Sequence record: LC473039.1
Reading direction: 5' to 3' (one strand)
Origin: Escherichia phage L27
DNA: 64,000 nt
Shown in pieces: positions 3,628-40,122 of the stretch. The translations under genes and the position numbers were made by a program. Each line of letters opens with the position of its first letter. The stretch's first letter is position 1. A model generated the notes under the pieces. That model was not told the DNA's origin. It saw only the letters and a list, made by a program, of their open reading frames with translations, and made no database searches.

Positions 3628-3876
3628 ATGGCAACTATCCGCGCTACTGTTAACGAGTTCGGTTTTTCCTCTCTGGATGTTAAATTTGACATTGCATGCA
3701 CTGATAACGCCTTTGAAATGGTGAAAGGTCTTATCAGTCAGACCATCAAAGATTATAATCCTTCGGATGAGTTCTGGGAGGAAACAAAACAAGAAGTTCT
3801 CAAGGATGGTTATACTTATCACTATTGGGGAGAAAAAATCGTCTCCCTGTACTACAACAAACAAGATTATAACTAA
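3628..3876 (+). CDS. hypothetical early protein (82 aa)
   Basis: ORF after cassette. Confidence 0.6.
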   Translation: MATIRATVNEFGFSSLDVKFDIACTDNAFEMVKGLISQTIKDYNPSDEFWEETKQEVLKDGYTYHYWGEKIVSLYYNKQDYN

Positions 3877-3915
3877 TCGACGCAGCGGGGCTATTTAGCC
3901 CCAGATACCTTCAAA

Positions 3916-3940
3916 GCCCCTTTTCATAGGGGCTTTTTTA
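3916..3940 (+). terminator. rho-independent terminator
   Basis: stem agcccct/aggggct followed by TTTTTT; an additional hairpin ggggctatttagcccc lies just upstream. Confidence 0.7.
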
Positions 3941-3944
3941 CGTC

Positions 3945-5610
3945 TTATCGAATCTCTATACAATCCTTTCCCTTTCCTTTCCAGAATCTTCCCACTGATT
4001 CAATAGAATCTATCTCATACCTTAAAAAGTAATAACTCTATAGCTTACTCTATAGCCCCTTATCAAATCAACTTAAATATAAGCCCATAACCCGAAAGGG
4101 AAGGGCAACCATTTAATTGGTATTGTTACCAATCCCTAAACGCTCTATAAAGCTCTATAACAGCCTTATCAACCTAACTTAAGGGATTGCATTAACTCAC
4201 CCTTAAAAGCTCTTTACAGGGCTTTATAGAGGCTTAAAAGAATCTTATAAGGGTGTAAGCTTTACCATATCGTTAGTTCCTTGTGAATATCTATAAATGG
4301 CTATGAGATAGGACTCTATCGAATCCTCTTGTTAGTGTCTTAAAAGTATGTTATAGGGACTTAAAAGTTACTTCAAAGTTACGTGAAAGAGGCTATAAAG
4401 TTACGTAAATGCTAGCCCCCTTAACATTTTCTTAACAATTTCTTAACAATCCCTACATAGTTATACTTGTTAGCCCCTTGTTAAATCTCTGTTAAGACCA
4501 TGTAAAAGCCTTGTAAGAACCTTTGACATAGCCTTAAAAGCTCCTGTAAAGCCCTATAAAGAGCTATCCATACAGTTGAGGGGTAAATACTAGGGAGAGA
4601 CTAAAAAGAACCTATAAAGAGCCTATAGAGAGCTTTTAAAAGGTATGTTTAAGGAATCACTAAGAAAGGGAAGGGAACGATAAGAAAAGAGTAGTGACCA
4701 TGTTAACAGCTTGTTAAAAAGATTAAACACTTGTTAGGAACTTGTTAATTATCTTAACAAAATAACCCTTAAAAATTAACTTCTTAGACCTTGTTAGATA
4801 TCTGTTAAGCATCTGTAAAGACTATTCAGCAACTGTTAAGAAACTGTTACACCCCTGTTAGTTCTGTTAAGAATCTGTTAAGACCTTTGAAGAGTTGTTA
4901 AAAAGGTGTTAGAACTGTTAAGAGATTGTTAATGATATTTTAAGATTTTGCAAAGTACTTGTAAGGGAGCTGTTAAGGGCTACCAAGCAGATATACATCC
5001 TAATCAGATATTTTTCAGTTCCTTCAAAGACCCTAAAAAATGACTTGATAGTCCTATTTTATAAAAATTTTAAAATTCTGAATAATTACCTATACAGTCT
5101 TTCTAAAATACAGGTAGAAACAGGCTTATAAGATACCTTGTTAGTGCCGTGTTAGACCTTGTGAGATAAGGTCTGTAAAGATATTCCTGTTAAGTTTGTT
5201 AAAACAGTCTATATAGAGGCTTAGTATTTCCTAGTGAACACCTATAGAGGGTATCATAGCTGACATAATGGGTTACTGTTAAGTAACACAGATAACCTAG
5301 AGATTAAGAGGTGTATAGGAGCTTCTAAGAGGGTATAGAGAGATGGTTAAGGTGATTGTATAGGTTGTTAAGAAGGCTTGTTAGAAGAATGTTTAGAAGG
5401 CTTATTAAAGGGCTAGTTAGAAGGGTTATACAGGGGGCTATTAAGACCACTAGATAATTACTAAGATACTATATAGTACTATATAACTGTATATATATAG
5501 AGAGTAAGATTAAGAAGGTTGTTAAGAAGGATAGATATTTTATTCACATATGATGGTGACCCAGAGGTTGGGACAACCGATAAAATTTTATAAAAAATAT
5601 AAATTTCGTA
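3945..5610. repeat. ORF-free AT-rich region dense in short degenerate words ((c/t)tgtta(a/g), ctataaag, gttagaagg)
   Basis: no ORF of 60 aa or more in any frame over about 1.7 kb; lies between convergent transcription units. Confidence 0.5.
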
Positions 5611-5620
5611 AATTTTACTC

Positions 5621-5646
5621 AATAAAAAGCCCCCAATTAAGGAGGC
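5621..5646 (-). terminator. rho-independent terminator (minus strand)
   Basis: minus-strand hairpin gcctcc/gggggc followed by TTTTTATT. Confidence 0.6.
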
Positions 5647-5658
5647 TCTTAAGATATT

Positions 5659-6207
5659 TTAAATCAGGTTTTCTAAAACTGTTTTTAGTGATGACTTGGT
5701 TGTCTGATAAAAATGAGTAAACCTATTGTTGTTATCGAATATCTGCATCATAACAGCATCTCCCTTGATTGGGTACACTCGGATATCATAGTGAAACCCA
5801 TTAAAGACAGCAGAACCATTACAGAACACACTGAAATCATCCACTGAGATATACTCTTCATGCCCTGTGATTTTTATACAGACACCTTTACTCGGTCTCT
5901 TAGGGTTGGTATCTTCCATCACAGACATGCTCTGTCCACCAAGAGATACCATCGTGACCACTTTACGGTTCTTCTGTTTAAAGTACATTTTAACTTTCTG
6001 TAAAGTGTCTTCATAGAACGGATAAGACCTCTCTACAAAGATTCCTTCTAATGGCTCTTTACCATTTTCAACTTCTCTGTTATGTCGTACTGCAAAGATA
6101 ATTTGTTCGAACCAGTCAAGATTTTCTTCGGAGAGTGCTTCTCGAATATCACTCCAGTCAAGGACTAGGTAGTTACCTTCAACTTCTTTTAAGTTATCTT
6201 TTTCCAT
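5659..6207 (-). CDS. hypothetical protein (about 183 aa)
   Basis: ORF; ATG at 6207 chosen because the track start at 6252 is a TTG that overlaps the upstream gene. Confidence 0.5.
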   Translation of the reverse strand: MEKDNLKEVEGNYLVLDWSDIREALSEENLDWFEQIIFAVRHNREVENGKEPLEGIFVERSYPFYEDTLQKVKMYFKQKNRKVVTMVSLGGQSMSVMEDTNPKRPSKGVCIKITGHEEYISVDDFSVFCNGSAVFNGFHYDIRVYPIKGDAVMMQIFDNNNRFTHFYQTTKSSLKTVLENLI

Positions 6208-6220
6208 AGCTATCACACCA

Positions 6221-6685
6221 TTATCGTAAAACTTGATAATCTGGTACTGCAAACTTGTTGTTATTGTTTTTAATGAGGTCTTCTTCTGTTACTAAGAATG
6301 TAAGACCACACAAGTGTGTATAGTGGCTATCATACTCAAATATTTTAAGTAGGTATTTACCATCATGATAAACAAACTCTACAACACCTTTTGCAACAAT
6401 CTTTCCAGTCTTGAAGTCTTTAAGGTGGTATACATTACCAACTTTAGGGACTGTTTTCACTTCAGGTTCTTTTAGTTTCTCACCAACTTCTACATCACCT
6501 AGTAAGTGAGAACTTTCAAACGCTACATATTGCATATAAGCTTCTGAGCATTCCCAGATAAAACAATGTACAAGAACCTTAGCAGCATGTCTTGAGCAAT
6601 TCAACTTATCACAAATATCTTTGTACATTTCATCTTTAGTTGAGTTGTCAAGCATTGCTTTTTGGACTACTTCTTTAATTTTCAT
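6221..6685 (-). CDS. hypothetical protein (154 aa)
   Basis: ORF in co-directional array. Confidence 0.55.
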   Translation of the reverse strand: MKIKEVVQKAMLDNSTKDEMYKDICDKLNCSRHAAKVLVHCFIWECSEAYMQYVAFESSHLLGDVEVGEKLKEPEVKTVPKVGNVYHLKDFKTGKIVAKGVVEFVYHDGKYLLKIFEYDSHYTHLCGLTFLVTEEDLIKNNNNKFAVPDYQVLR

Positions 6686-20650: not shown

Positions 20651-20851
20651 ATGAGCGAGACCGTTTATAAAGAACTTTATGAAGCTAATAAGAAGCTAGA
20701 ATTTATGCAGAATACTATCATGGCAATTGCAGACAGATTGTCTGTAGCAACAGGTATTGATATTAAAGAAGCATCTATGGATGCACTTCTTGATGCTGTT
20801 GATGCAAAGTTCGAAGTTAAGAAAGAAGAGACTGCTACAGACTCTGAATAA
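20651..20851 (+). CDS. hypothetical protein (66 aa); possible small terminase subunit by position only
   Basis: small ORF immediately upstream of large terminase. Confidence 0.4.
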   Translation: MSETVYKELYEANKKLEFMQNTIMAIADRLSVATGIDIKEASMDALLDAVDAKFEVKKEETATDSE

Positions 20852-20872
20852 TTCTATTTGCGGAGGCGCTTA

Positions 20873-22474
20873 ATGGACTTAAATGCTGTTAAGCAGAAGC
20901 GAGTGGAAGATGTTAGGAAAGTCCTAGCTGGAGAGTTGGGGCTTTCTGATGAAGTAAAAGAAATTATCAAATCATTCGGTAAAGACCCCTCTAAATTCCT
21001 TCCAACTCAAATTCTGACTTTATTAAGATACACACCAGACCAAGTTAGACTTATCTTCAAATTGATGACTGATAAGAACTATGTAGCCCCTCAGCCGGGT
21101 TCTCAAGAGGTCTTTTTAAATACTAATGCTGACTTGGTTCTCTATGGTGGTGCTGCTGGTGCTGGTAAAACTGCTGCATTGTTAATGGACTCTTTAAGAT
21201 TTATTGAAGACCCTAACTATAATGCTGTATATTTCCGTCGAAATACAACACAGTTACAAGGTGGTTTATGGCCTGCTGCAAAGAAACTGTTTGGTAAGTT
21301 TGGTGGGATTCCTCACGAGCAGAAAATGACTATCACATTCCCTTCTGGGGCAACTATCAAGTTTACCTACCTAGAACTTGAAAAGCACGCTGAAGGTCAT
21401 CAGGGTATTGAATACTCAGCTATTTACTTTGACGAAGGTACACACTTCTCTGCTTCACAGATTTCATACCTACAGACTCGTCTGCGTTCTGGTGCTGAAG
21501 GCGACTCATACATGAAGATTTCCATGAACCCAGACAGAGACCACTTTATTTATGATTGGGTAGAGCCATTCTTAGATGAAGAAGGTTACCCAGACCCTGA
21601 GAAGTGTGGTCGTATCCGTTGGTATGTTATGAATGATGGTGTGATGGTTTCTGATTGGGAGAGAGACAAGATTCTTGAAATGTTCCCTCTTGAGATTCCT
21701 CAAACATACACCTTCATCTCTGGTACGATTGATGATAACCCAATTCTTGACTTCTTAGAGCCAAAGTATCGCGGTAAGCTTGAAAACAACACTCCTGTAA
21801 ACGTTGCAAGACTTCGTTTCGGTAACTGGAAGGCTCGTGCAGAAGGTTCAAACTACTGGCAAAGACAATGGTGTGAGATTGTTGATTCACTCCCAGAAGA
21901 TGTATTCGATGTTAGAGCATGGGACTTAGCAGCAACTTTACCATCTGAGATTAACCCTAATCCAGACTGGACAGCAGGTGTTAAGATGGGTAAATCTAAA
22001 AAAGACGGTTGCTATTATATCATTGATGTAGTAAGATTTAGAGATAGACCCTCTGGAGTCGAAACACAAATTAATTTGACTGCTGAAAGTGACGGTAAGC
22101 GAACTGGTATTTTTATCCCTCAAGACCCAGGCGCTGCTGGTAAATCCTACGCAACATCCCTCATCAGGAAACTTGCCGAGAAAGGTTATCGCGCAAGAGC
22201 TAAACCAACAAATAAAGATAAAGTTACCCGCTTTGCGGGATTTTCTGCTGCTTCTGAAGCTGGACTTGTAAAAGTCTTGAGAGGTAGTTGGAATGAAGCT
22301 TACTTCCAAGAGCTTGAAGGCTTTTGTGGTGATGGCAAAACTAAAGATGACCAAGTGGATGCTACCAGTGATGCTTTCAACAGTCTTAACGAAGTTAAAT
22401 TATTCAAGCCACCATCAATGGGTGCTCACACAGACTTAGTGAGAGGAAACCCATATGAGGGGCTTAGACGTTGA
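20873..22474 (+). CDS. terminase large subunit
   Basis: Walker A (GGAAGAGKT) near N-terminus, C-terminal nuclease-like region; ATG at 20873 after GGAGG RBS. Confidence 0.85.
   Translation: MDLNAVKQKRVEDVRKVLAGELGLSDEVKEIIKSFGKDPSKFLPTQILTLLRYTPDQVRLIFKLMTDKNYVAPQPGSQEVFLNTNADLVLYGGAAGAGKTAALLMDSLRFIEDPNYNAVYFRRNTTQLQGGLWPAAKKLFGKFGGIPHEQKMTITFPSGATIKFTYLELEKHAEGHQGIEYSAIYFDEGTHFSASQISYLQTRLRSGAEGDSYMKISMNPDRDHFIYDWVEPFLDEEGYPDPEKCGRIRWYVMNDGVMVSDWERDKILEMFPLEIPQTYTFISGTIDDNPILDFLEPKYRGKLENNTPVNVARLRFGNWKARAEGSNYWQRQWCEIVDSLPEDVFDVRAWDLAATLPSEINPNPDWTAGVKMGKSKKDGCYYIIDVVRFRDRPSGVETQINLTAESDGKRTGIFIPQDPGAAGKSYATSLIRKLAEKGYRARAKPTNKDKVTRFAGFSAASEAGLVKVLRGSWNEAYFQELEGFCGDGKTKDDQVDATSDAFNSLNEVKLFKPPSMGAHTDLVRGNPYEGLRR

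Positions 22475-32127: not shown

Positions 32128-40122
<7,995 letters not shown>

Follow-up and report, generated by a model that had tools for sequence, protein, structure and literature searches.

The largest gene-free region of Escherichia phage L27 is very probably the collapsed terminal-repeat junction of a Felix O1-like phage and carries a helically phased array of TGTTA words

The widest gene-free gap of Escherichia phage L27 was analysed in a window of 64 kb, by which we mean the whole stretch of DNA under study. The region is very probably the concatemer junction of a Felixounavirus myovirus with short exact direct terminal repeats and unit-length packaging. By alignment with relatives, positions 4415–4984 are one collapsed copy of the direct terminal repeat (DTR) of 570 bp, 3941–4414 is the unique DNA just inside the right genome end, and 4985–5619 is the unique DNA just inside the left genome end. 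The assembly runs through the genome ends; therefore, the DTR is single in the window, as expected of a collapsed assembly. In virion DNA it would stand at both ends. The original prediction, made from the letters of the sequence, had named a packaging or terminus region among its options, and this option is correct by homology to relatives with measured ends. Within the repeat, the TGTTA(A/G) words are probably protein binding sites that form an array.

Results

Positions 3877–5658, all the DNA between the stop of an 82-aa gene at 3876 and the stop of a 197-aa minus-strand gene at 5659, are free of start-to-stop ORFs of at least 60 aa. The biggest ORFs inside are 41, 47, and 56 aa long, and the maximum stop-free run is 69 codons. 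This is the widest gene-free gap within the window, and the earlier claim that about 1.7 kb holds no ORF of at least 60 aa was borne out. Terminator-like hairpins were found at both edges of the gap and face inward, at 3918–3940 on the plus strand and at 5644–5620 on the minus strand, in agreement with the earlier claim that the terminators of the flanking blocks bound the region. The second of them adjoins the minus-strand gene at 5659–6252. Both gene blocks are transcribed outward to the physical ends and stop at the terminators; therefore, the DNA between them is gene-free and looks 'convergent'. A BLAST search matched the region with 256 phage records at 80–95% identity, nearly all of them Felixounavirus or relatives. 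Since this identity is kept across so many records, the region is not assembly noise. A first guess, a T5-like injection-stop region, was dropped because the BLAST matches are Felixounavirus.

The boundaries of the repeat were placed by alignment. The phage Pr103Blw has terminal repeats of 581 bp, annotated from PhageTerm, and the first and last bases of its record align to 4415 and 4984, respectively. Position 1 of the HP1 record (Mooglevirus) also aligns to 4415, and the HP1 repeat is 570 bp. The window segment 4415–4984 aligns over its full length with the annotated repeats of both phages. The records of Ro111lw and SeKF_63 begin at 4415 as well, and that of pEP20 begins at 4984 in reverse orientation. 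The 'DTR' feature of UAB_69 is 2 nt wider per side (4413/4986 vs 4415/4984). The DTR of UAB_Phi87 was determined as 608 bp by Bal31 digestion and run-off sequencing (PMC4837284); its record is not opened at its ends and was left out of the direct boundary alignment. The large terminase subunit (TerL) at 20858–22474 matches phrog_979 with E = 7.8e-234 and is 99–100% identical to Felixounavirus TerL. The DTR of the window and those of other Ounavirinae are homologous, with 76–94% identity over the repeat, and share the same boundaries, flanking genes, and terminase, so that the relation is one of membership and not of analogy. At 570 bp, the DTR stands at the short end of the range among relatives, 570–638 bp, and its short length is due to gain or loss of 11-bp and 22-bp units.

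The conservation among 15 relatives peaks at both boundaries, with 0.96–0.98 across the left one and 0.91–0.94 across the right one. The terminal sequences are essentially invariant in these 15 relatives, which belong to three genera. A GCTAGC palindrome at 4411–4416, the sole copy in the window, straddles the left cut. The sequence TTACG...TA/GCC at the left boundary (the slash marks the cut) is retained in Kolesnikvirus too, and Erwinia phage Fifi318 has AAGCAGATATACA and GATTTTGCAAAG unchanged. The DTR of Kolesnikvirus, the Erwinia-type phages, was predicted by motif homology alone at 34314–34752 of L023, with a length of 439 bp. Exactly the predicted 439-bp segment is carried at positions 1–439 of the SPARTY and vEam_PM_21 records, with a second copy elsewhere in the record, and five other records agree with the predicted boundaries within 1–9 nt. 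The features of the region are collected in Table 1.

Table 1. Features assigned in the gene-free region, by position in the 64-kb window
Feature	Position	Strand	Remark
Terminator(s) of the plus-strand small-gene block (physical right end)	3879..3940	+	Hairpin 3918-3932, then T run
Right-end sub-terminal unique flank, variable	3941..4414		Counterpart of the 457 bp of Pr103Blw from the last gene to the right DTR copy
Conserved AAAGTTACGTAAATGCTA, adjoining the left DTR boundary from outside	4397..4414		Conservation among 15 relatives 0.98 (4397-4436)
Direct terminal repeat, 570 bp	4415..4984	+	Placed by homology to relatives whose ends were measured
Triple consensus TGTTAAG repeat at exact 11-bp spacing	4420..4450	-	Minus-strand reading TTGTTAAGAAATTGTTAAGAAAATGTTAAGGGGGC
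Run of five TGT(T/A)A repeats at exact 11-bp spacing	4466..4516	+	Sites 4468, 4479, 4490, 4501, 4512
Second word family in the mid-DTR: CTTAAAAG, CTGTAAAG, CTATAAAG, CTATAGAG	4530..4640	+	Spacing 10-11 bp
TGTTA cluster, four plus-strand and two minus-strand copies	4699..4760	+	4701, 4712, 4732, 4743 (+); 4708, 4759 (-)
Main array, 14 TGT(T/A)A repeats	4790..4977	+	Best period 10.45 bp, R = 0.90
Conserved left-end sub-terminal block	4985..5236		Conservation 0.89-0.94
Variable left-end flank	5237..5619	+	Conservation dips at 5237-5316 and 5397-5436
Terminator of the minus-strand gene block (physical left end)	5620..5658	-	Hairpin 5644-5630, then T run

The terminal repeat as such is already known for the genus, and the anatomy of its internal word arrays appears to be undescribed. 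In the literature, the descriptions of Ounavirinae DTRs give length and position only, and none was found that describes internal word arrays. These arrays had been noticed in the original prediction; the positions agree, and the words are far above chance abundance. In comparison with the rest of the window on both strands, TGTTA is 12-fold enriched, with 30 plus-strand copies in the region. The word CTGTTAAG is 61-fold enriched (9 copies in the region vs 10 elsewhere), and TATAGAG occurs six times in the region and once elsewhere. The relaxed word TGT(T/A)A has 37 copies on the plus strand of the ORF-free region, made up of 30 TGTTA and 7 TGTAA, and 9 on the minus strand. TGTTA arrays lie at 4468–4512, 4701–4743, and 4792–4971, and sparser copies at 5139–5197, 5366–5379, and 5520. 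The CTATA(A/G)AG sites are at 4145, 4393, 4554, 4612, 4623, and 5242, and GTTAGAAGG-type words at 5362–5423 and 5516.

The words keep a helical phase. The self-similarity of the region peaks at lags of 11, 21, 32, and 42 bp, with z values of 11.7, 7.0, 4.2, and 2.9 against shuffles, which corresponds to a period of about 10.6 bp. The DTR contains 24 TGT(T/A)A words on one strand; most are separated by 11 bp, and they keep a 10.4-bp phase through 55 turns of the helix. The spacing between neighbours is 11 bp in 14 of 23 cases and never 12 bp; the other nine spacings are of 9, 20, 33, 49, and 156 bp. The array at 5362–5423 in the left-end flank is spaced at 12 bp. The word arrays are kept in related phages: the TGTTA cores are conserved at 0.88–0.93 vs 0.74–0.80 for the spacers, and a best period of 10.35–10.55 bp with R = 0.66–0.80 was obtained in all 15 relatives, whose DTR lengths are 570–638 bp (the 99th percentile of the null for R is at most 0.63). 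The indel lengths cluster at 11–12, 22–25, and 32 bp. In Kolesnikvirus, the word GTTAAGA is 100-fold enriched and fills the junction, which is otherwise unalignable.

Each end of the repeat has its own arrangement. The triple repeat at the left end points to the left terminus, begins 6 nt from it, and is kept in 15 of 15 relatives with at most one or two spacer changes. The polarity of the array switches at about 4455–4466, and the five repeats that follow are opposite in orientation to the triple. The conservation of the TGTTA cluster at 4699–4760 is 0.92–0.96. The main array is built of blocks of two or three repeats at 11 bp, with block offsets of 9, 20, or 33 bp, and its last repeat, TGTTAAGGGCTACC, ends at the right terminus.

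The two sub-terminal flanks differ in composition. The top strand of the right-end flank is C-rich (GC skew –0.32), and that of the variable left-end flank is G-rich (GC skew +0.43). The words of the right-end flank are CTATA(A/G)AG, CTTAAAAG, and CTGTAAAG; most copies of TATARAG are minus-strand. The conservation of this flank dips to 0.47–0.69 at 3997–4036, 4117–4156, and 4277–4396. On the left-end side, the conserved block opens with AAGCAGATATACA directly beyond the right DTR boundary, and an AT-rich stretch lies within it at 5050–5090. The variable left-end flank holds GTTAGAAGG and TGTTAAGAAGG words every 12–13 bp (5362–5423 and 5516–5530), together with TATAGAG words. The word TTAGAAG is found in Kolesnikvirus at the mirror position and orientation.

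The arrays were compared with the sites of known DNA-binding regulators. The repeats bound by ArcA, the oxygen-sensing regulator of the host, are built on a TGTTA core, for which TGTAA and TGTCA can stand in, and are arranged 11 bp apart from centre to centre, with two to five per site and cooperative binding (PMC4173790; PMC3798270). At putP, a 12-bp spacing is not tolerated by phosphorylated ArcA (ArcA-P) (PMC3798270). An 18-bp ArcA weight matrix was made from 115 E. coli ArcA boxes, and its scores correlated with the published ones at r = 0.994. The cut-off was 9.1 bits, the score of the weakest genuine ArcA box, and the published range is 9.1–21 bits. The region holds 23, 14, and 7 boxes of at least 9.1, 12, and 15 bits, respectively, vs 2.8, 0.6, and 0.1 in dinucleotide shuffles. 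The density is 13.7 boxes per kb, and elsewhere in the window it is 1.0 per kb; in Kolesnikvirus it is 14.2 per kb at the junction vs 0.46 per kb. Two invariant boxes in the triple repeat score 22.7 and 22.5 bits and exceed every listed E. coli site; the best box of the triple repeat in the 15 relatives scores 22.7–23.4 bits. In Kolesnikvirus the arrangement recurs in another sequence, with scores of 20.3, 19.7, and 15.1 bits at 34320–34342 of L023. The five repeats next to the triple score 9.5–17.9 bits, and seven ArcA boxes of the main array score 10–17.7 bits.

The ratio of T to A at the fourth core position is 0.78:0.20 in the phage repeats vs 0.76:0.19 in ArcA boxes. Beyond the five core bases, the phage repeats lack the A/T-rich flank and spacer preferences of ArcA; the terminal triple repeat is the exception. 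C at –1 stands at 0.36 in the phage repeats vs 0.03 in ArcA boxes, and G at +6 at 0.45 vs 0.08. The non-core log-odds of the two correlate at r = –0.33, and the mean non-core score is –1.0 bits for the phage repeats, +3.5 bits for real ArcA sites, and –1.6 bits for random sequence. The CTATAAAG-type and GTTAGAAGG-type word families are not accounted for by ArcA. The words of other host regulators with direct repeats of 10–11 bp, namely TGTTTA for PhoP, CTGTCAT for PhoB, CTGTTCATAT for TorR, GTAAA for CpxR, and YTTAAK for PmrA, all fit worse than that of ArcA. The PmrA word is a near miss to the phage word, with five of six positions on either strand. A search of the available literature found no paper that ties ArcA to Felix O1-like phages.

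Discussion

The proposed function starts from the cut sites. Terminase would cut replicated concatemers at two invariant boundaries, ...GCTA/GCCCCC... and ...GGGCTACC/AAGCAGATATACA, and each boundary has an outward-pointing TGTTAAGGG repeat that lies 3–5 nt inward of the cut, with conserved DNA on the outer side. The protein that binds the array would recognise head-to-tail direct repeats and may be of the winged-helix (OmpR/PhoB) type. Since about 24 sites share one face through 55 turns of the helix, the bound protein would cover the repeat and form a nucleoprotein array with polarity. Such an array would serve to mark and organise the junction, be it for its recognition, for bringing repeat copies into synapsis, or for its cutting.

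The iteron-type arrays offered by the original prediction survive in their protein-binding part, through the greater conservation of cores than of spacers and the helical phase. The origin or partition part did not stand, and an iteron origin was rejected. The units are cores of 5–8 bp every 11 bp and not iterons of 17–22 bp, no initiator-like or ParB-type gene adjoins the region, where the neighbouring proteins match only families of unknown function, and transcription converges. It is improbable that the region is or contains a replication origin in which the arrays are initiator iterons and the AT-rich stretch is the unwinding element. Dense, helically phased direct repeats do adjoin a conserved AT-rich segment, phosphorylated ArcA is known to bind E. 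coli oriC, and the secondary origins of T7, where the phiOL and phiOR promoters are annotated, adjoin its terminal repeat. However, both gene blocks are transcribed into the region, its DNA is split between two ends in the physical genome, the sharpest conservation falls on the measured cut sites and not on the AT-rich stretch, and no DnaA-box-like word is prominent among the enriched k-mers. We give very little credence to the proposal that untranslated RNA, of one or more kinds, is encoded here, or that the region works through intrinsic DNA shape (static curvature) and not through a bound protein. A long conserved non-coding stretch would suit an RNA, and a strong 10.5-bp periodicity is elsewhere often a sign of curvature. 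On the other hand, the Rfam 15 scan gave four sub-threshold matches only, the best with 25.8 bits against a gathering threshold of 50, and the top two (25.8 and 24.8 bits) overlap a terminator. Promoter-like sites number 15 vs 12.1 expected from shuffles, both bounding terminators face inward, and the folding z of the best-conserved block, 4985–5236, is –0.35 on both strands. The untranslated RNA of the original prediction is thus not supported. The predicted curvature, from the Bolshoy–Trifonov wedge model with approximate wedge parameters, is 8.1 degrees per turn in the DTR vs a window mean of 7.5, and 5.5–6.7, which is below average, in the TGTTA array. With the region within about 1 SD of the window mean, intrinsic curvature was rejected as the main explanation. 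Moreover, the conservation is of the specific bases T, G, T, T, A, beyond a phasing of A/T.

Granted a bound protein, the question is which protein it would be. Host ArcA-P is the best-defined candidate because the core word and the prevailing 11-bp spacing match ArcA sites, and that ArcA is indeed the binder of the TGTTA array is a tentative reading. Equally tentative is its evolutionary form, in which the DTR of Felixounavirus, Mooglevirus, Suspvirus, and Kolesnikvirus may have evolved into a super-array of 24–30 ArcA sites on one face. In that case, phosphorylated ArcA would coat the repeat in the low-oxygen gut, with the strongest sites 6 nt from the left genome end. Since the positions that flank the core mismatch ArcA, a phage-encoded binder is equally likely. 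It is a credible prospect, short of an even chance, that a small terminase subunit or an end-binding or packaging-accessory factor reads the TGTTAAG arrays, and that the likeness to ArcA reflects a shared head-to-tail geometry. The identity of the terminal-repeat junction would be unaltered. The extended consensus YTGTTAAG(A) departs from the ArcA consensus WTGTTAAWW, with flanking positions that score at chance, and the word is kept across genera alongside the phage lineage. At either end, the distance from the last repeat to the cut is short and fixed, as a protein that positions terminase would require. Terminase recognition sites elsewhere, such as the R elements of lambda cosB, the P1 pac hexamers, and SPP1 pacL/pacR, are multi-site arrays. 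Felix O1-like phages are routinely grown aerobically and thrive so, and ArcA-P is low under aerobic growth. Against a phage protein, no candidate was recognised: in PHROGs and Pfam, the matches of two small ORFs upstream of TerL were all to families of unknown function, and neither a small terminase subunit nor a helix-turn-helix protein was recognised adjoining TerL with these databases. A tblastn search with approximate ArcA, PhoB, and OmpR queries gave no match in the 64 kb (E > 0.6), out of a genome about 23 kb longer than the window. If the phage encodes the binder, the match to one host regulator in the 5-bp core, the T>A variant ratio, and the 11-bp spacing would be pure chance.

The junction of Pseudomonas phage PAK_P2, a distant relative with a host outside the Enterobacterales, is without a comparable array. 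This fits a host factor and a phage factor alike and therefore does not discriminate between them. A scan of IMG/VR for three consensus repeats at 11-bp spacing gave at least 120 contigs and did not discriminate, since most of these had one match by chance in AT-rich DNA. Dense repeat clusters were seen in a few uncultured contigs, which are without cultured relatives.

The junction identity has practical uses. The largest 'empty' stretch of Felix O1-like genomes is accounted for as the collapsed terminal repeat with both sub-terminal flanks; therefore, the small hypothetical genes that several GenBank records place in it are probably spurious. Genome records can be re-opened at their true ends by the two invariant boundary strings, which worked predictively for Kolesnikvirus. 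The TGTTA array on one face is a concrete, mutable target for the study of terminase-junction recognition. Phages of the Felix O1 type are widely used in Salmonella typing, biocontrol, and therapy. If the ArcA reading is true, ArcA might be an architectural cofactor for repeat synapsis or terminase cutting, and packaging might be coupled to the respiratory state of the host. Replicating phage DNA might also be a decoy that titrates ArcA-P and derepresses the TCA cycle and respiration of the host. To our knowledge, this would be the first virulent phage that wires its genome ends to the oxygen/redox sensor of the host. Growth, packaging, or metabolic takeover could then differ between aerobic culture and the anaerobic gut, and such a difference would bear on predicting therapeutic performance.

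Comparison with known systems

The ArcA-P sites of E. coli (Park et al. 2013; Park and Kiley 2014) are like the phage array in the TGTTA core, with TGTAA as a common variant, and in direct repeats that are mostly 11 bp apart in the phage, with blocks of two or three and further blocks helically phased. The phage box scores of 9.5–22.7 bits are within or above the published range. However, the phage array has 24–30 repeats in 570 bp without an underlying promoter, whereas the promoter sites of E. coli have two to five repeats. The 9- and 20-bp spacings of the phage are also unlike the 11 bp of ArcA, where 22 bp is also seen.

The concatemer junction of T7 is likewise ORF-free DNA around a short exact terminal repeat (160 bp) with a 7-bp word in one orientation. 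CCTAAAG has 13 copies on the plus strand and none on the minus strand, distributed across the repeat and both of its flanks. The T7 words CCTAAAG, CATAAAG, CTTAAAG, and CTATAGAG resemble the type of the mid-DTR words. On the other hand, the T7 word differs from TGTTA and recurs at 12–13 bp, out of helical phase, in contrast to 11 bp (10.4 on average) here. The T7 arrays extend over about 450 bp vs about 1.6 kb here, the polarity switch is absent, and the T7 junction has no ArcA-box-like sequence of 12 bits or more. T7 is a podovirus and Felix O1-like phages are myoviruses; the two are unrelated, and they share neither word nor spacing. We know of no proven function for the T7 arrays, so that the analogy supplies no mechanism.

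The terminase sites of lambda (cosB, with IHF), P1 (pac hexamers), and SPP1 (pacL/pacR) are short repeated words that adjoin the cleavage point, with 3–7 repeats in 100–200 bp in cos or headful systems. The array described here exceeds those several-fold in size and is part of an exact-DTR system. For a host DNA-binding protein that aids terminase there is a precedent; architectural roles are known for IHF at lambda cos and for ArcA at psi, a recombination site of pSC101.

Terminal-repeat junction

The window belongs to a Felix O1-like myovirus. Its 3900-5700 segment is matched at 80-95% identity by 256 phage records, nearly all of them Felixounavirus and relatives, its TerL (20858-22474) is 99-100% identical to Felixounavirus TerL, and it carries 24 tRNA genes. 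Felixounaviruses package their DNA with short exact direct terminal repeats (PMC4837284; PMC8303462). The repeats are 608 bp in UAB_Phi87, as determined by Bal31 digestion and run-off sequencing (PMC4837284), and 581 bp in Pr103Blw, as determined by PhageTerm (PMC8303462). Short terminal repeats were only deduced in the original description of Felix O1, whose genome was opened at rIIA (PMC3185647). In alignments, record position 1 of both Pr103Blw and HP1 (Mooglevirus) falls at window 4415 and the final base of Pr103Blw at 4984. The records of Ro111lw and SeKF_63 also start at 4415, that of pEP20 opens at 4984 and runs in reverse, and the 'DTR' (direct terminal repeat) feature of UAB_69 is wider by 2 nt at each side. 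The genome ends are therefore joined within the window. The right end of the Pr103Blw record has 457 bp between its last gene and the repeat, and the left end 631 bp between the repeat and a minus-strand first gene; the sum of these layouts explains the 1.7-kb gap. The blocks described as convergent in the original prediction are the gene blocks at the two ends, with outward transcription in each, and among the roles it proposed, the packaging or terminus region was the correct one. This identity is already known for Felixounavirus and is ordinary as such. This junction was also seen, at 88% identity, at 135380-137117 of GU169904.1, a 147-kb record named 'Staphylococcus phage SA1', and this points to a chimera or contamination in the database record.

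The predicted lack of ORFs over about 1.7 kb was borne out. No ORF of at least 60 aa lies between 3876 (stop of an 82-aa plus-strand gene) and 5659 (stop of a 197-aa minus-strand gene); the biggest inside are 41, 47, and 56 aa, the stop-free run is 69 codons at most, and no larger gap without genes exists in the 64-kb window. For the bounding terminators, terminator-like hairpins were likewise found on both sides. Small 'hypothetical protein' genes, 1-4 per record, are annotated inside the junction in several GenBank records (UAB_69, FG1m, FM4b, Sl26), for instance CDSs of 25 and 49 aa in UAB_69 (1654-1731 and 1800-1949 of its locus L004). Because of the repeat structure and the lack of any ORF of at least 60 aa across the junction in the window, these are probably spurious calls.

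No GATC occurs in the 64-kb window, where base composition and a second-order Markov model each predict about 220 sites. CCGG, CGCG, GCGC, GGCC, and CTAG were also depleted, and CCWGG occurred only 4 times. The absence of GATC and the depletion of the other sites suggest that sites for Dam or for restriction enzymes cutting GATC have been strongly selected against.

Features of the junction, and ArcA-box-like clusters in uncultured viral contigs (window positions unless a contig is named)
Feature	Position	Strand	Remark
Terminator-like hairpin	3918-3940	+	points into gap
Right-end sub-terminal DNA	3941-4414		alignment with relatives
Terminal repeat, single collapsed copy	4415-4984		one copy in window
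Perfect triple at 11 bp	4420-4450	-	3 of the 6 minus-strand copies; adjoins left end
Left-end sub-terminal DNA	4985-5619		alignment with relatives
Terminator-like hairpin	5644-5620	-	points into gap
Second word family CTATAAAG, CTTAAAAG, CTGTAAAG	right flank and middle of repeat
Third word family GTTAGAAGG	left flank		12-bp spacing
IMG/VR clusters	L077 7385-7527; L043 6292-6403, 8662-8818; L079; L119 2245-2292; L140 7318-7362

Boundaries and their prediction in Kolesnikvirus

The junction is kept among 15 aligned relatives from three genera (77-94% identity to the window). Conservation is highest at the left boundary (0.96-0.98 over 4397-4476) and is 0.89-0.94 at the right boundary and the following 250 bp (4917-5236); both flanks are low in parts. 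The left terminal sequence, GCTA followed at the cut by GCCCCCTTAACATTTTCTTAACAA, and the right one, TGTTAAGGGCTACC followed at the cut by AAGCAGATATACA, do not vary among these relatives other than by a few substitutions that lie between the last two repeats of the TGTTA type. Read outward, each end closes with a TGTTAAGGG repeat that lies 3-5 nt before the cut. GCTAGC, a palindrome that the window has only once (4411-4416), spans the left boundary, and the two published start calls, 4415 and 4413, are symmetrical about its centre. The symmetry of these calls, which were made by differing methods, would fit a 2-nt staggered cut.

The Erwinia phage Fifi318 (Kolesnikvirus) has a TerL of 69% identity and the same synteny of small plus-strand genes, a 1.4-kb gap, and a minus-strand lysis block. 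From the boundary motifs alone, its repeat was predicted as 439 bp (34314-34752 of the Kolesnikvirus locus L023). The prediction was confirmed by the independent records of SPARTY and vEam_PM_21, which have exactly this segment at record positions 1-439 and a second copy elsewhere in the record, and five more records agree within 1-9 nt. The two genera share GATTTTGCAAAG and AAGCAGATATACA without any difference, while the interior of their repeats can hardly be aligned (49% identity). By this conservation, GATTTTGCAAAG and AAGCAGATATACA would be the best candidates for terminase recognition and cleavage signals. As for the terminase itself, the match of the TerL ORF (20858-22474) to the 642-position PHROG TerL profile begins only at position 81, and a conserved 66-aa ORF (20651-20851, phrog_4397, function unassigned) precedes it. 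The N-terminal region of TerL may be separately encoded, or the start may be mis-set.

Word arrays

The words listed in the original prediction lie at the positions given there and are strongly enriched against the rest of the window: TGTTA 12-fold, CTGTTAAG 61-fold, and TATAGAG with 6 copies versus 1. The self-similarity check that it proposed gave peaks at lags 11, 21, 32, and 42 (z = 11.7 at lag 11). Of the TGT(T/A)A words in the repeat, 24 are plus-strand and 6 minus-strand, and the polarity flips at about 4460. Neighbour spacings within the repeat are 11 bp (14 times), 20 bp (3), 9 and 33 bp (2 each), and 49 and 156 bp (1 each). Therefore, groups of 2-3 repeats at 11-bp spacing make up the array, and the offsets between groups keep them in phase. 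A period of 10.4 bp fits best (R = 0.73 over 500 bp), with R = 0.90 for the array at 4790-4975. All 15 relatives keep this phasing, at periods of 10.35-10.55 bp with R of 0.66-0.80 (99th percentile of the null, 0.63 at most), even though their repeats vary from 570 to 638 bp, and the indel lengths cluster at 11-12, 22-25, and 32 bp. Conservation is higher in the TGTTA core (0.88-0.93) than in the spacers (0.74-0.80), and a wedge model predicted no special intrinsic curvature. The phase kept in all relatives, the core conservation, and the lack of predicted curvature point to base-specific protein binding on one helix face, not to DNA shape alone. In the Kolesnikvirus junction, GTTAAGA is 100-fold enriched with lags of 11, 22, 33, and 44 bp; the word is retained though the DNA is otherwise unalignable.

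The iteron-type arrays of the original prediction are supported as far as protein binding is concerned, on phase and core conservation. As a replication origin they are not: the unit size is wrong, no initiator-like gene adjoins the region, transcription converges, and conservation is centred on the cut sites. The proposed untranslated RNA found no support, with no Rfam match, no excess of promoters, and ordinary folding.

The CTATAAAG/CTTAAAAG/CTGTAAAG and GTTAGAAGG families are left unexplained by the present readings. The left-flank word TTAGAAG occurs in Kolesnikvirus in mirror position and orientation. The 57-bp repeats between early genes of Felix O1 hold CTTAAAAG and CTGTAAAG inside a hairpin (PMC3185647), and these words are of the same family as those at window 4200-4640 (right-end flank and mid-repeat). 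Words of the CTTAAAAG/CTGTAAAG type may function elsewhere in the genome too.

Candidate binding proteins

Direct TGTTA repeats 11 bp apart are the signature of ArcA-P, the phosphorylated form of the host oxygen/redox-sensing response regulator ArcA. Published descriptions give a 10-bp repeat element with a TGTTA core and functional variants TGTAA and TGTCA, 11 bp or sometimes 22 bp centre to centre, with 2-5 repeats per site; binding is cooperative and phosphorylation-dependent, and putP with 12-bp spacing is not bound by ArcA-P (PMC4173790; PMC3798270). Of the 128 E. coli boxes that have been published, 115 were used to build an 18-bp matrix, whose scores correlated with the published ones (r = 0.994). 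This matrix found 23, 14, and 7 boxes of at least 9.1, 12, and 15 bits in the region, versus means of 2.8, 0.6, and 0.1 in dinucleotide shuffles, and the density at 9.1 bits or more was 13.7 versus 1.0 per kb in the rest of the window. The triple repeat at the left terminus scores 22.7 and 22.5 bits (published range 9.1-21), and the best left-terminus box in the 15 relatives scores 22.7-23.4 bits. The Kolesnikvirus junction has 14.2 boxes per kb versus 0.46 in the rest of the locus, with 20.3, 19.7, and 15.1 bits at its left terminus. The T7 junction contains no box of at least 12 bits, and a comparable array was not found in the junction of Pseudomonas phage PAK_P2.

However, several properties speak against ArcA. 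ArcA preferences are not followed by the phage repeats at positions beyond the core: C at -1 has a frequency of 0.36 in phage repeats versus 0.03 in ArcA boxes, and G at +6 of 0.45 versus 0.08. The log-odds of the non-core positions correlate at r = -0.33, their mean score being -1.0 bits in the phage versus +3.5 in real ArcA sites and -1.6 in random sequence. The 9- and 20-bp spacings are non-canonical for ArcA, Felix O1-like phages grow aerobically, and a literature search found no ArcA link to them. Binding of the array by a phage protein is about as likely as binding by ArcA, and that protein may be the missing small terminase subunit; a weak search detected no ArcA-like or helix-turn-helix protein in the window. 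As judged from these motifs, ArcA would be a specific and testable candidate, albeit a doubtful one.

Dense ArcA-box-like TGTTAA clusters spaced at 11 bp, in which boxes reach as much as 24 bits, were also seen in a few unrelated uncultured IMG/VR contigs. One contig has the inverted layout (minus- then plus-strand copies) of the repeat's left end, and L077 holds 31 boxes of at least 12 bits in 10 kb. Megablast with L077 and L043 gave no cultured relative of either.

Comparison with T7

The one-face, polar TGTTA direct-repeat array over the whole repeat, the repeats pointing outward at both cut sites, and the word kept across a subfamily, with its match to ArcA boxes, seem to be undescribed. 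The T7 concatemer junction, rebuilt from the ends of the T7 record, carries 13 CCTAAAG copies in a single orientation across the 160-bp repeat and both of its flanks, recurring every 12-13 bp. It is the same kind of object as the Felix O1-type junction. However, the latter is about three times larger and, unlike T7, has helical phase and a polarity switch.
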